64,000 nucleotides of DNA from Burkholderiales bacterium (GTDB lineage: Bacteria > Pseudomonadota > Gammaproteobacteria > Burkholderiales > SG8-39): positions 320 to 64,319 of the forward strand of contig JADLES010000089.1 of assembly GCA_020845995.1 (NCBI GenBank), written 5' to 3'. The notes under the pieces are model-generated. The model was not told the DNA's origin, did no database searches, and saw nothing but the letters and a program-made list of their open reading frames with translations. A program made the translations under genes and the position numbers. Of the stretch, positions 6,656 through 26,786 are shown piece after piece. Positions within the stretch are counted from its first letter, which is position 1. Each line of letters begins with the position of its first letter.

Positions 6656-7644
6656 CTAGAAGCCGATCCGGCTCTTGCGGCCGCCGCGCGGCAGGTCGAC
6701 GTCCTCCGGGCTGAGTTCGTCGCGCCCGGCCAGCTTGGCGTTGCCAAAAGCGGCCTGCACTGCGCGGCGCATCTCGCGCGGCGTGAGCAGCGCCAGCTTC
6801 TCGATCACGCTCGCCGAGGGCCGCTCGGGAAAACGCCTGCCCCAGTCGTGCGCTTCGCGGATCTCCCGGTACAGCGACAGCGCGATCCTCGCCGCGCCCT
6901 CGGCATCGGGCGCCGCAATCTCGTAGACGTGCATGCGGTTGAGCAGGGGCTCGGGGATGCGCGCGGCGTCGTTGGCGGTGGCGAACCAGACCGCGCCCGA
7001 GGCATCGATCGGCACCTCGGCGAACTCGTCGACGAAGCGCATCGCGGTCTGGCTCTCCAGCAGCTCGTAGAGCGCGCCCAGCGGGTCGTACTGGCCCTCG
7101 GCGCTCGCCTTGTCGATCTCGTCCACCACCATCACCGGGTTGGCGTACTCGCCGTTGAGGAAGGTCTCGAACACCTTGCCGGGCTTGGCGTTCTTCCACT
7201 GGGAGGAAGCGCCCGAGAGCACCCAGCCGGCGGTGAGCGAGCTCATCGGCACGAAGCCGAAACCCGTGGCGAGGAGCTGCGACACGCGCCGCGCGAAGTG
7301 GGTCTTGCCGATGCCGGGCCCGCCCAGCAGCAGGACCGGCTGCAGCTCGATGTCGTCGGCCGAGTCCACGCACAGCGCGAGCTGGCGGCGGATGTGCTCG
7401 AGCACCTCGCCGAAGTTGGGCAGCTCCTCGTGCAGCGCCTGCATTTCCGGCAGCCCGGAGGGCTTGACGGCGAAGCGCTGGCCGCCCAGGCGCAGCATCT
7501 TCTCGTAGAGCGCGCGCAGGGCCTCGTTGGCCGAGGGCGGCAGCTCCTGCAGGGCCTTCTCGACCGCGGCGGTGTCGTAGATGTCCTTGAAGCCGGCGAC
7601 GGGGATCGCTGGCGGCGGGACGGGAAGCGCGACGTTTGAGGGCA
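6656..7644 (-). CDS. AAA+ ATPase, Lon-like ATPase module without protease domain
   Basis: ATG at 7644 after GGAGG. Walker A GGPGIGKTH, Walker B MVVDEIDK, sensor region TANDAARIPEPLLNRM. The upstream 313 codons of tracked ORF 6656..8584 are antisense to aroG and rejected. Confidence 0.85.
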
Positions 7645-7765
7645 TGGCTACCTCCGAACGTTCTTGTTGTGAGTCATCGATCCGCGCGAAAAAAATAGCA
7701 TGGCACCCGCCGTCGAGCAAATCCGGTGTTGGACAGGCGGCGCGGATCTGTGCTTGAATAGGCCC

Positions 7766-7831
7766 ATGCGACGCTGGTTTTTCGGCTATTTCTTCACCTT
7801 CCCGCGCCCTCTGGCGGAGGGGAACGGCTAG
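7766..7831 (+). CDS. Putative aromatic-amino-acid leader peptide (MRRWFFGYFFTFPRPLAEGNG)
   Basis: 21-codon ORF 91 nt upstream of the DAHP synthase start. Seven of residues 4-12 are aromatic (1 Trp, 1 Tyr, 5 Phe). FFTFP resembles the end of E. coli PheL. A terminator/antiterminator pair follows. Confidence 0.55.
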   Translation: MRRWFFGYFFTFPRPLAEGNG

Positions 7832-7855
7832 CCGCGCTACCAGCGACCACCGACG

Positions 7856-7893
7856 AACCGCCAGAGCAGAGATGCCTGGCGGTTTTTGTTTTT
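7856..7893 (+). terminator. Attenuator: intrinsic terminator in the DAHP synthase leader
   Basis: Stem AACCGCCAG (7856-7864) / CTGGCGGTT (7876-7884), 11-nt loop, then TTTTTGTTTTT. An alternative 9-bp pairing is CTCTGGCGG (7809-7817, inside the leader ORF) with CCGCCAGAG (7858-7866). Confidence 0.6.
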
Positions 7894-7921
7894 CGGGGAC
7901 GCCCCGCAACCAGGACCTGCC

Positions 7922-9010
7922 ATGAGCACCCACATCGACGACAAGACCTCGCTGACCGACGACGAGCGCATCGAGAACATCGTGCCGCTGCCTCCGCCCG
8001 AGAACCTGATCCGCTTCTTCCCGATCCAGGGCACGACCGTGGAGCGCCTGGTGGCCGACACGCGCAAGCGCGTGCGCGAGATCGTGCGCGGCAAGTCCGA
8101 CCGGCTGCTGGTGATCATCGGGCCGTGCTCGATCCATGACCCCGCCGCCGCGATCGGCTATGCGGAAAAGCTTCTCCTCGAAAGAAAGAAGCATGAAGGC
8201 GAGCTGGAAGTCGTCATGCGCGTGTACTTCGAGAAGCCGCGCACCACGGTGGGCTGGAAGGGGCTGATCAACGACCCGTACCTGAACGGCAGCTTTCGCA
8301 TCAACGAGGGCCTGCGCATCGCCAGGGACCTGCTCGTGCGCATCAGCCGCGCCGGCGTGCCGGCGGGCTGCGAGTTCCTCGACGTCATCTCGCCGCAATA
8401 CATCGGCGACCTGGTGTCCTGGGGCGCGATCGGCGCGCGCACCACGGAATCGCAGGTGCACCGCGAGCTCGCCTCGGGGCTGTCGGCGCCGGTCGGCTTC
8501 AAGAACGGCACCGACGGCAACGTGCGCATCGCCGTGGACGCGATTCTCGCCGCCCGGCAGAAGCACCACTTCCTCTCGGTGCACAAGAGCGGGCAGGTAT
8601 CAATCGTCGAGACGCGCGGCAACGAGGACTGCCACGTCATCCTGCGCGGCGGCAAGGCACCGAACTACGACGCCGCCAGCGTCGCCGCCGCCTGCGCCGA
8701 GCTGGCGACCGCAAAGCTCGACTGCCGGCTGATGATCGATCTCTCGCACGCCAACGCGGAAAAGAATTTCAGGCGCCAACTCGATGTCGCGCGCGACGTC
8801 GGCGCGCAGATCGCCGCCGGCGCGCGCTGCATCATCGGCGCGATGGTCGAATCGCACCTCGTAGAGGGCCGGCAGGAGCTGGCGGCCGGCAAGCCGCTCG
8901 CCTTCGGCCAGAGCATCACCGATCCCTGCCTGGGCTGGGAGGACTCGGTGACGCTGCTCGGCGTGCTGGCCGACGCGGTCAAGGCGCGCCGGAAGAAGGG
9001 CAAACGCTGA
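7922..9010 (+). CDS. aroG: 3-deoxy-7-phosphoheptulonate (DAHP) synthase, class I
   Basis: Contains [50 protein letters not shown] and the GFKNGTDG motifs. ATG at 7922. The isozyme (Phe, Tyr or Trp sensitive) is not determinable; the symbol is a best guess from the Phe-rich leader. Confidence 0.95.
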   Translation: MSTHIDDKTSLTDDERIENIVPLPPPENLIRFFPIQGTTVERLVADTRKRVREIVRGKSDRLLVIIGPCSIHDPAAAIGYAEKLLLERKKHEGELEVVMRVYFEKPRTTVGWKGLINDPYLNGSFRINEGLRIARDLLVRISRAGVPAGCEFLDVISPQYIGDLVSWGAIGARTTESQVHRELASGLSAPVGFKNGTDGNVRIAVDAILAARQKHHFLSVHKSGQVSIVETRGNEDCHVILRGGKAPNYDAASVAAACAELATAKLDCRLMIDLSHANAEKNFRRQLDVARDVGAQIAAGARCIIGAMVESHLVEGRQELAAGKPLAFGQSITDPCLGWEDSVTLLGVLADAVKARRKKGKR

Positions 9011-9039: not shown

Positions 9040-9744
9040 ATGATGATCGTCGCCGGCGCGTACTTCGTGTTCGGCCTCACCGGCTTCGGCTCGACGGTGA
9101 TCGCGCTGCCGCTGCTGGTGCATTTCTTTCCGCTCAAGTTCGCGGTGTCCCTGCTGATGCTGCTCGACCTGGCGGTGCTGGCGCTGTTCGGCGCGCGCCT
9201 GCGGCGCGGCCTGCGGCTGGACGAAATCGGCTGGCTGCTGCCGTCCATGCTGGCCGGCATGGCGGTGGGGCTCACGCTGCTGATCACGGCGCCCGAGCGG
9301 CCGCTGCTCGCCGTGCTGGGCCTGTTCCTGCTCTGCTACGCGGCCTGGGGCCTCGCGCGGCCGGCGGGCCCGCCGCGGCTCGCGCGGGGCTGGTGCGTGC
9401 CGGTCGGCCTTGCCGGCGGCGCATTCTCCGCGCTGTTCGGCACGGGCGGCGTGCTGTTCGCGGTCTACAACGCCGGCCGCCTGAGGGACGCCGCCGAACT
9501 GCGCGCCAACAACGCGGCCATGATCCTGCTGTCCTCGTCGCTGCGCCTGGTGCTGTTCGGCGCGGTCGGCCTGCTCGCGCAGGACGGACTGCTCACGACC
9601 GCGCTCGCGCTCGCGCCCGCGCTCGCGCTCGGCTTCTGGCTCGGCGGGCGCGCCAACGCGGCGGTGTCCGCGGCCGCGGTGGTGAAAGCGGTGTACGCTT
9701 TACTGGTGATCGCGGGCCTGACGCTACTCGCGCGCTCCCTTTGA
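9040..9744 (+). CDS. TauE/SafE (DUF81) family membrane transporter
   Basis: 234 aa and polytopic. GLTGFGSTVIALPLL and a repeated half (GLAGGAFSALFGTGG) are typical of the sulfite-exporter TauE/SafE family. Confidence 0.8.
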   Translation: MMIVAGAYFVFGLTGFGSTVIALPLLVHFFPLKFAVSLLMLLDLAVLALFGARLRRGLRLDEIGWLLPSMLAGMAVGLTLLITAPERPLLAVLGLFLLCYAAWGLARPAGPPRLARGWCVPVGLAGGAFSALFGTGGVLFAVYNAGRLRDAAELRANNAAMILLSSSLRLVLFGAVGLLAQDGLLTTALALAPALALGFWLGGRANAAVSAAAVVKAVYALLVIAGLTLLARSL

Positions 9745-25401: not shown

Positions 25402-25818
25402 ATGAATTTCCAGCGCGGCCGCTACAAGGAGGAGCCCGAGATCAACCTGGTGCCCCTCATCGACGTGATGATGGTGATCCTGATCTTCCTCATGATCACC
25501 ACCACCTACTCGAAGTACACCGAGCTGCAGATCAACCTGCCGACTGCCGACGCCGAGAAGCAGCTCGAGCGCCCCGGCGAGGTGAATGTGCTGGTCAACG
25601 CGAAAGGCCAGTACGTGGTCAACAAGGCGCCGGTGGAGTTCGCCAGCATCGAGCAGCTCGCCGGCGAGCTGCGGCGCGCGGGCGCCGGCCTGCGCGAGCC
25701 GATCGTGATCATCAGCGCCGACGCGGCCGCCACCCACCAGTCGGTGATCCGGGTGATGGAAGCCTCGCGCGTCGCCGGCCTGTCGCAAATCACCTTCACC
25801 ACGCAGTCCTCGAAGTAG
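25402..25818 (+). CDS. exbD: Biopolymer transport protein ExbD/TolR
   Basis: 138 aa with INLVPLIDVMMVILIFLMIT followed by a periplasmic domain. Confidence 0.9.
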   Translation: MNFQRGRYKEEPEINLVPLIDVMMVILIFLMITTTYSKYTELQINLPTADAEKQLERPGEVNVLVNAKGQYVVNKAPVEFASIEQLAGELRRAGAGLREPIVIISADAAATHQSVIRVMEASRVAGLSQITFTTQSSK

Positions 25819-26786
25819 TGCGGCACTGGGCGCGCCGCGGCGCCGTCGCCTGGCTGCTGTGGCCGGTGAGCCTGCTGTTCGGGGTTCTGGTTTTTTTTCG
25901 ACGAGCTCTTTACAAGCTGGGAATCTTCAAGAGCCACGGCGCCGGAATTCCGCTCATCGTCATCGGCAACCTGAGCGCGGGTGGCAGCGGCAAGACGCCG
26001 CTCGTGCTGCGCACCGTCGAGATCCTCAGGGAACACGGCTGGAAACCGGGCATCGTCTCGCGCGGCTACGGCGGATCCAGCCGGCAGCCCCGCGAAGCGA
26101 GCATTGCTTCCGACCCGTCCGCAGTGGGCGACGAGCCGATGCTGCTCGCCCGCCGCAGCGGCTGCCCGGTGTGGGTCGCGCCCGAGCGCGTCGCGGCTTG
26201 CCGCGCGCTGCGCGAGCGGCACCCGGAGTGCGACGTCATCGTCAGCGACGACGGCCTGCAGCACTACGCGTTGCGGCGCGCCGTGGAGATCTGCATCGTG
26301 GATGCGCGCGGCTTCGGCAACGGCTTCCTGCAGCCCGCGGGGCCGCTACGCGAGCCGGCTTCGCGCCTCGGCTCGGTGGACCTGGTGGTGGCGCACGGCG
26401 CGCCCGGGGTCCGGGGGCACGCCATGACGCTGGAGGGCGAGCGGCTGGTGCGCTTCGCCGATGCGCGCGACGTGCGCGCGGCGAAATCCTTCGCCGGCCA
26501 GCGCGTGCACGCGGTGGCCGGCGTCGGCGACCCGGCGCGGTTCTTCCAGCAGCTGGCCGGCTTCGGCATCGAGGTCGTGCCGCATCCGTTTCCCGATCAC
26601 CACCGGTTCGGCGCACGCGACTTCGATTTCGGCGACGCCGGCCCGGTCGTGATGACCGAGAAGGACGCGGTAAAATGCAAGCCCTTCGCGCGGGCGAATT
26701 TCTGGGTGTTTCCCGTGAGCGCTTCGCTCGACCCCGCGTTCGAACGCAGGCTGCTGGAGAAGCTGGGTGGACCCAAAGCTGCTTGA
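25818..26786 (+). CDS. lpxK: Tetraacyldisaccharide 4'-kinase
   Basis: The GTG start overlaps the exbD stop by 1 nt. Contains P-loop [13 protein letters not shown], and the [16 protein letters not shown] motifs. Confidence 0.93.

Follow-up and report, generated by a model that had tools for sequence, protein, structure and literature searches.

A probable ribosome-mediated attenuator with a Phe- and Tyr-rich leader peptide upstream of the DAHP synthase gene in Burkholderiales

Transcription attenuation by a translating ribosome is classical for the aromatic amino acid genes of Escherichia coli, where the trp attenuator (TrpL; the Yanofsky model) follows a four-segment logic of leader codons, anti-antiterminator, antiterminator and terminator, and the attenuators of pheA (leader peptide PheL; Rfam Phe_leader) and pheST couple a run of Phe codons to alternative terminator and antiterminator structures. 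Here we analyse an element of the same logic in a stretch of 64,000 nucleotides (nt) from a Burkholderiales bacterium (GTDB SG8-39; GenBank assembly GCA_020845995.1, contig JADLES010000089.1, positions 320 to 64,319 of the forward strand), called the window below, in which a 21-codon open reading frame (ORF) rich in aromatic codons and an intrinsic terminator stand directly before a gene for 3-deoxy-7-phosphoheptulonate (DAHP) synthase, aroG for short. From the sequence comparisons and folding models described below, we consider it very probable that the element acts as a classical ribosome-mediated transcription attenuator of the DAHP synthase gene.

Attenuation of such a gene has a precedent. 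In Corynebacterium glutamicum aroF, which encodes a DAHP synthase, is attenuated through the aroR leader (Phe-Tyr-Phe), as was first predicted in PMC4046766; according to the account of Neshat et al. (2014, J Biotechnol 190:55) in PMC11802643, limitation for Phe raises read-through there and a supply of Tyr has no effect despite the Tyr codon. Like the window, aroR-aroF has a mixed aromatic leader before the gene for the first committed step of the common aromatic pathway, and it gives a precedent (PMC4046766, PMC11802643) for the aromatic leader peptide before DAHP synthase that our first-pass annotation had set beside the pheA and trp classics. The likeness that can be stated is a functional one, and a sequence relationship is not expected: C. 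glutamicum belongs to another phylum and its aromatic cluster has three codons, whereas the window has seven aromatic codons in nine and orthologues have up to nine in ten, and the GGCGG/ACCGCC/GGCGGU chassis is specific to the betaproteobacterial family. Further elements have been predicted before DAHP synthase genes, as in the window, namely the uORFC-13-1 motif upstream of aroF in Acholeplasma, which encodes 'at least one' Phe (Brewer et al., 2021; PMC8632094), and, as far as the citation in PMC1173090 goes, attenuators before aroF-tyrA of Vibrio in the Merino database. Both occur in unrelated lineages and have unrelated sequences, so that DAHP synthase attenuators appear to have arisen repeatedly.

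The E. coli PheL peptide contains the string FFTFP, as does the window peptide, and the two had initially been likened to each other. We regard this as coincidental and rejected homology with PheL, since the Thr and Pro positions vary among orthologues, no Rfam leader family matches even at E<=10, and the layout differs. PheL precedes a terminal-branch gene, is purely Phe-coded and ends right after TFP (pheL closes with ACC-UUC-CCC-UGA, i.e. TFP-stop, and pheL genes are catalogued in Gammaproteobacteria only; PMC3082878), whereas the window ORF mixes Phe, Tyr and Trp codons and runs on for nine further codons, so that the antiterminator arm lies within the ORF. Relative to TrpL, the predicted leader hairpin of the window would take the 1:2 role; the family departs from TrpL in that its 1:2 element is not conserved, its sensing would be mainly of Phe and Tyr, and its start is probably leaderless. 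The parts of the element are as follows.

7766..7831, + strand: leader ORF, 21 codons plus TAG (7829-7831), start ATG at 7766, peptide MRRWFFGYFFTFPRPLAEGNG
7775..7801, + strand: run of regulatory codons, W-F-F-G-Y-F-F-T-F (nine codons, among them 5 Phe, 1 Tyr and 1 Trp)
7809..7817, + strand: antiterminator 5' arm CUCUGGCGG, inside the leader ORF (codons Pro15-Leu16-Ala17), with the GGCGG core at 7813-7817
7858..7866, + strand: antiterminator 3' arm CCGCCAGAG, overlapping the left arm of the terminator
7855..7893, + strand: intrinsic terminator, stem 7855-7864:7876-7885, inner extension 7866-7868:7873-7875, U-tract TTTTTGTTTTT to 7893
7772..7845, + strand: leader hairpin, candidate anti-antiterminator or '1:2' element, predicted, minimum free energy (MFE) -36.8 kcal/mol
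7922..9010, + strand: type I-alpha (AroF/G/H-type) DAHP synthase, 362 amino acids, TIGR00034, PF00793

ORF, arm, terminator and gene thus follow one another within 157 nt in the order expected for an attenuator. On re-reading the sequence, the coordinates initially given for the ORF, the arm and the terminator all matched; a DAHP synthase gene does lie downstream, with its coding sequence starting at 7922 rather than at 7921 or 7923. The terminator arms AACCGCCAG (7856-7864) and CTGGCGGTT (7876-7884) enclose an 11-nt interval and are followed by TTTTTGTTTTT. Read as its reverse complement, CTCTGGCGG (7809-7817) matches CCGCCAGAG (7858-7866) without a mismatch, which gives an antiterminator of 9 bp; base 7865, bulged out of the terminator hairpin, is paired in the antiterminator. 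The calculated energies are -21.7 kcal/mol for the terminator hairpin and -17.0 kcal/mol for the antiterminator duplex. A simple terminator scan missed the hairpin at 7855-7893 solely on account of its 8-nt loop limit; the hairpin is interrupted by a bulge and extended inwards by 3 bp. The window contains a single match to the composite pattern GGCGG-N25-55-ACCGCC-N4-20-GGCGGTTTT, where 100 shuffles gave an expectation of 0.00, and the region 7760-7900 folds with z = -3.5 relative to shuffled sequences. From the T-run to the DAHP synthase ATG there are 28 nt, and from the leader stop codon to the same ATG 90 nt; with a terminator of about -22 kcal/mol just 28 nt ahead of it, a biosynthetic gene requires some conditional means of read-through.

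The aromatic run is exceptional within this DNA (69% G+C): WFFGYFFTF is the sole seven-aromatic stretch among about 128,000 nine-codon windows in the six frames of the 64 kb, and the aromatic-codon density of the leader ORF is the unique maximum in any frame. For comparison we scanned for orthologous DAHP synthases, taking one genome per species (80 loci, 61-89% protein identity, designated L001 and so on), and aligned the 41 distinct leader sequences (alignment A1) as well as 15 sequences from the close clade of the window (alignment A2). Across the 41 leaders the leader frame holds 300 aromatic codons and not one stop; in the remaining two frames the counts are 134 and 60 for aromatic codons and 26 and 8 for stops, respectively. 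Synonymous TTT/TTC and TAT/TAC exchanges are frequent among the orthologues, and changes in length come as whole codons. Taken together, the frame-specific aromatic codons, the lack of stops, the synonymous exchanges and the whole-codon length changes indicate that the run is selected as codons. With means of 4.7 Phe, 1.9 Tyr and 0.7 Trp codons per leader, at least three Phe codons and at least one Tyr codon are present in 41/41, whereas Trp occurs in 28/41, usually as a single codon. Judged by codon content, sensing of Phe plus Tyr would be a family-wide feature; the original proposal that the leader reads all three aromatic amino acids is plausible for the window on the same grounds and is not defining for the family.

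A 20-25-codon ORF rich in Phe, Tyr and Trp stands just upstream of the DAHP synthase gene in 47 of the 80 loci, with peptides such as MSAKFYFYFFWYLRPLADREG (Burkholderia), MSANNFYFFYFWFSALGGREAEIQA (Polynucleobacter) and MTSSRFQFYFYFSYSSPTAVEKR (Herminiimonas). All 47 leaders have a strong terminator, ACCGCCrG...CyGGCGGTTTTTT, of -13 to -25 kcal/mol, and the comparative alignment thus bears out the conservation of the small ORF and the terminator. The three-part chassis GGCGG ... ACCGCC ... GGCGGTTTT is present in 46/80 loci, always directly upstream and on the strand of the gene. Carriers with informative names are nearly all Burkholderiales and include Burkholderia, Paraburkholderia, Trinickia, Pararobbsia, Cupriavidus, Polynucleobacter, Herminiimonas, Keguizhuia, Usitatibacter, a Comamonadaceae metagenome-assembled genome (MAG) and many Burkholderiales MAGs. 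Among the 80 loci the attenuator is absent from those labelled Rhodocyclales, Methylobacillus, Thioalkalivibrio, Planctomycetota and Kiritimatiellae. The upstream neighbour varies between lineages and is kept only in the close clade of the window, which indicates that the element travels with the DAHP synthase gene.

Some loci of this sample deserve a separate remark. L060 (41-120) and L072 (1354-1432; leader MKPFGLCFSYWYYGPTSGWRNGRQVRT) match the RNA chassis despite a low score in the ORF screen. A few loci lacking the chassis (L068, L049 and L025 among those noted) have other short ORFs containing aromatic codons, e.g. MPWGFYGPSPYWRYRR in Rhodocyclus L068, and these might be divergent attenuators. 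Several carrier MAGs bear implausible names, such as 'Enterobacteriaceae' or 'Bordetella parapertussis'. Five contigs binned as Planctomycetota, Verrucomicrobia or Kiritimatiellae (L013, L014, L017, L024, L029) encode a DAHP synthase that is 69-75% identical to the betaproteobacterial enzyme described here, and have no leader; horizontal transfer or mis-binning could account for the gene on these non-proteobacterial contigs.

Constraint also falls on the RNA. GGCGG, ACCGCC and GGCGGTTTTT are invariant or nearly so in the 41 sequences, as would be expected if one segment pairs alternately with two others, since any change then needs three coordinated substitutions. In L018 (1300-1362), L019 (1285-1362) and L021 (1263-1340), whose ORF tails are longer or different, GGCGG is read in another frame, as Gly-Gly and not Leu-Ala-Glu; that it is kept despite the frame change places the constraint on the RNA and not on the peptide, and from this comparison the apparently conserved C-terminus PLAEG/PLADREG is the RNA arm. 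In alignment A1 the terminator has 97.6% of cells paired, and one stem pair changes from A-U to G-C in 8 sequences. The antiterminator 7809-7817:7858-7866 is 90.3% paired in the same alignment, whereas shifting the partner by 1-3 columns gives 25-58%; it has 13 compensatory cells at 2 pairs and a covariation score reached by 0/500 shuffles. Within the close clade (A2) it is 92.6% paired, and the pair 7810:7865 is U-A in 6 and G-C in 6 sequences; since the terminator leaves base 7865 without a partner, the exchange is specific evidence for the antiterminator.

The spacing of the parts is nearly constant and fits a ribosome. Counted from its first base, the last aromatic codon precedes the GGCGG core by 14 nt, in some cases 17 nt, and the core in turn begins about 16 nt (range 13-22) upstream of the stop codon; both distances hold in almost all of the 41 leaders. 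We assumed a footprint from A-15 to A+12, so that the ribosome reaches about 12 nt ahead of the A site and about 15 nt to its rear. Stalled at an aromatic codon, such a ribosome would stop shortly before the core; once it had reached the ORF end, it would mask the core. Nascent transcripts (7766-7870, i.e. before synthesis of the terminator 3' arm) were folded with the ribosome positions masked. In the window the full set of 9 antiterminator pairs requires an A site placed on codons 3-11 (7772-7796, which include W, F, F, Y, F and F). These pairs do not form when the A site is moved to codon 12 (the last Phe, 7799) or to any later position up to the stop codon, nor without a ribosome, where the leader hairpin wins in silico. 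The proposal that stalling at the Phe, Tyr or Trp codons frees the arm therefore holds in silico for codons 3-11 and fails for the last Phe codon, at which the ribosome would already cover 7809-7811. For the 41 sequences, the MFE structure contains the antiterminator core at 229/299 aromatic stall positions; it does so in 0/41 when the A site has moved at least two codons beyond the run, and in 7/41, the leaders with longer tails, when the stop codon occupies the A site. A leader peptide with mutually exclusive antiterminator and terminator, as first proposed, is thus upheld by parts kept in 46-47 of 80 loci, by compensatory changes, by near-constant spacing and by the nascent folds.

Upstream of the leader ORF the sequence suggests where the transcript may begin.

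7730..7759, + strand: putative sigma-70 promoter, read from the sequence

It would comprise a -35-like TGGACA (7730-7735), an 18-nt spacer (7736-7753, TGc included) before TTGAAT, and an extended -10 TGcTTGAAT (7751-7759); a consensus promoter scan of the region, which requires A at position 2 of the -10, found no promoter. The putative -10 ends 6 nt before the leader ATG, and no Shine-Dalgarno sequence precedes the ATG, which together suggest a leaderless or nearly leaderless mRNA for the leader peptide in the clade of the window. About 19 related loci have a TGn plus a -10-like hexamer ending 6-8 nt before the start codon, likewise without a Shine-Dalgarno sequence, with the variants TGcTTGAAT, TGcTTCAAT, TGgCAGAAT and TGcTACATT (window 7729-7768; L001-L012, L018, L019, L021, L028, L030, L074). 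Other members have the same -10 about 20-25 nt upstream with GGAG or GGAA between, and Burkholderia has TATAAA about 37 nt upstream. A longer, 43-amino-acid version of the leader ORF from the in-frame ATG at 7700 was rejected: that ATG lies upstream of the putative promoter, and L001 has an in-frame stop there.

We propose the following mechanism on the basis of what is established here, namely the anatomy and its conservation, covariation in both antiterminator and terminator, the fixed spacing and a switch that is thermodynamically plausible. Transcription, we infer, starts at or just before the leader AUG, and a ribosome would translate the 21-codon leader as RNA polymerase advances. When Phe-, Tyr- (and Trp-) tRNA is well charged, the ribosome would reach codons 12-21 and the stop codon and cover the GGCGG arm at 7813-7817; the left arm of the terminator would then be free, the terminator would form, and transcription would end at about 7890 to give a short transcript of some 125 nt. 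Under poor charging the ribosome would stall with its A site on codons 4-11 and its front edge short of 7809, CUCUGGCGG would pair with CCGCCAGAG as the latter emerges, the terminator would be blocked and polymerase would enter aroG. The leader hairpin, which pairs the aromatic-codon region with the purine-rich segment GGAGGGGAAC and with sequence past the stop codon, and which holds 7814-7817 of the antiterminator arm in its stem and 7806-7813 in its loop, may serve as the 1:2 element in the window.

Several observations weigh against this mechanism or complicate it. Folded at equilibrium, the full-length RNA adopts the terminator in every case, whichever ribosome mask is applied, so that the proposed switch would depend on co-transcriptional kinetics; equilibrium folding is, however, unfit as a test, since the switch would be decided before the terminator 3' arm exists. 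The constrained folding foreseen at the outset thus has a divided result: nascent transcripts switch as predicted and the full-length RNA does not, which makes the switch a kinetic one. In 20/41 orthologues the antiterminator core forms in silico without any ribosome, and many members therefore look like three-element switches whose untranslated default is read-through. The leader 5' end CGCUGGUUUUUCGG (7767-7785) pairs with 7850-7868 in silico when the ribosome is on codons 12-16, 19-21 or the stop codon, a second antiterminator-like pairing that, if it occurred in vivo, would oppose termination. Translation of the leader would rest on the presumed leaderless start, there being no Shine-Dalgarno sequence before the ATG, and the apparent start codon is GTG or TTG in a few orthologues (GTG in L002, L004 and L008). 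A few orthologues (L001, L004, L007) have mismatches beside the arm core. As to the leader hairpin, its covariation is not significant in the 15 close relatives (71% of cells paired), and RNAalifold on the 41 sequences returned the terminator only and did not recover it; we regard the hairpin as predicted for the window and not established for the family.

Other accounts of the same parts were weighed. The short transcript might be a product in its own right, either a functional aromatic-rich micropeptide or a stand-alone small RNA of about 125 nt, with the terminator ending that unit, aroG served by its own promoter and the complementary 9-mer a by-product. It would be a discrete unit with its own putative promoter and terminator, attenuator RNAs and leader peptides can act in trans, as described for Sinorhizobium (PMC7968998, PMC7298713), and the C-terminal PLAEG/PLADREG appears conserved as peptide. 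We nevertheless hold this account to be improbable, considering that the T-run is followed by the aroG ATG after 28 nt in the window and after 15-27 nt in L001, L004, L008, L020 and L030, which leaves no room for a promoter, and that the element always stands beside the DAHP synthase gene on the same strand though the upstream neighbour varies; moreover, the 'conserved' C-terminus is the RNA arm, read in the other frame in L018, L019 and L021, and the arm covaries with the terminator-proximal base 7865. A trans function in addition to attenuation could exist.

An alternative pairing does not by itself identify its trigger, and a real switch might be set by a ligand riboswitch, by an RNA-binding protein of the TRAP or PyrR type or by uncharged tRNA, with the ORF incidental; that the antiterminator is the default fold without a ribosome in 20/41 orthologues would suit such an arrangement. 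What is conserved upstream of the arm, though, is only a start codon and a frame-specific Phe/Tyr/Trp run with synonymous variation, RNAalifold gives the terminator alone and no aptamer-like structure, no Rfam family matches, and the constant run-to-arm and arm-to-stop spacing is what a ribosome footprint predicts, for which reasons we find a trigger other than the ribosome highly improbable. Finally, as upstream ORFs near a main start codon can act by reinitiation (PMC4833913) and the terminator lies close to the aroG start in the window, translation of the leader might modulate aroG translation or Rho loading; with the leader stop codon 90 nt before the aroG ATG, a hairpin of -22 kcal/mol plus U-tract intervening, no overlap of that hairpin with the AGGA Shine-Dalgarno sequence of aroG at 7913-7916, and the intrinsic termination signature GGCGGTTTTT invariant in 41/41 sequences, we give an action mainly through translation or Rho almost no credence. 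We therefore retain ribosome-mediated transcription attenuation as the best account of the locus.

The family is apparently uncatalogued, although its mechanism is that of the textbooks and the concept is not new. An Rfam search (cmscan, E<=10) of 7000-8500 gave two chance-level matches to unrelated families and no leader family, and at E<=1 no match fell on the leader in 12 orthologous loci; four representative leader peptides matched no family in NCBIfam or Pfam at E<=10. One of eight leader peptides is present in a collection of 15 billion proteins, as a 'hypothetical protein' of Paraburkholderia sacchari. A full-text literature search, beyond whose reach lay Vitreschak et al. (2004) and Lopatovskaya et al. 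(2010), found no description of such an element in Betaproteobacteria. More tentatively, and with slightly more doubt than confidence in the picture as a whole, we suggest an uncatalogued Burkholderiales attenuator family with the invariant chassis GGCGG / ACCGCC / GGCGGUUUU, which would place the entry enzyme of the shikimate pathway under joint control by charging of Phe and Tyr (often also Trp) tRNA; in the clade of the window the leader would be leaderless with the AUG as 5' end, and many members would lack the 1:2 hairpin and have read-through, not super-attenuation, as their untranslated default.

If true, the mechanism would explain transcription-level control of flux through the shikimate pathway in many Burkholderiales, and Burkholderia, Paraburkholderia and Cupriavidus among the carriers would give it clinical and biotechnological relevance. 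The element would be a compact, portable switch responsive to Phe and Tyr, and its deletion an obvious de-regulation target in engineering strains for aromatic products. The predicted short RNA and the micro-ORF are missing from the genome annotation, Rfam and NCBIfam. Of some, smaller mechanistic interest are a proteobacterial leader peptide with a probably leaderless start and an invariant pentamer under three-way constraint.

The DAHP synthase itself scores 516 bits against TIGR00034 (aroFGH; cutoff 173) and also matches PF00793. It stays below the cutoff of the AroG equivalog (533 against 568) and exceeds that of the AroH subfamily (499 against 463), and its sequence cannot assign it to the Phe-, Tyr- or Trp-sensitive isoenzyme or to a feedback specificity. 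Two genes flank the locus.

6656..7645, - strand: Lon-like AAA ATPase, 329 amino acids, divergent, lacking a protease domain (partial match to TIGR00763; PF00004)
9040..9744, + strand: TauE/SafE-family membrane protein (PF01925, 77 bits)

As the Lon-like gene is divergent, the terminator is not part of it; this gene lies upstream of the leader only in the close clade (L001, L002, L004, L006, L008-L012, L015, L030, L061). The second-densest aromatic stretch of the window, FWFFFDELF (25873-25911, + strand; nine-codon window at 25885), is off-frame within a 322-amino-acid ORF at 25818-26786 and was hence rejected as a leader peptide; from their sequences alone, we take that ORF to resemble the lipid-A 4'-kinase LpxK and the ORF preceding it (25402-25818) to resemble ExbD. 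The TauE/SafE gene begins 30 nt past the DAHP synthase stop codon on the same strand, and it is also downstream in L001, L002 and L007. Given that no obvious terminator was seen between the two genes, it may be co-transcribed with the DAHP synthase gene and share its attenuator.

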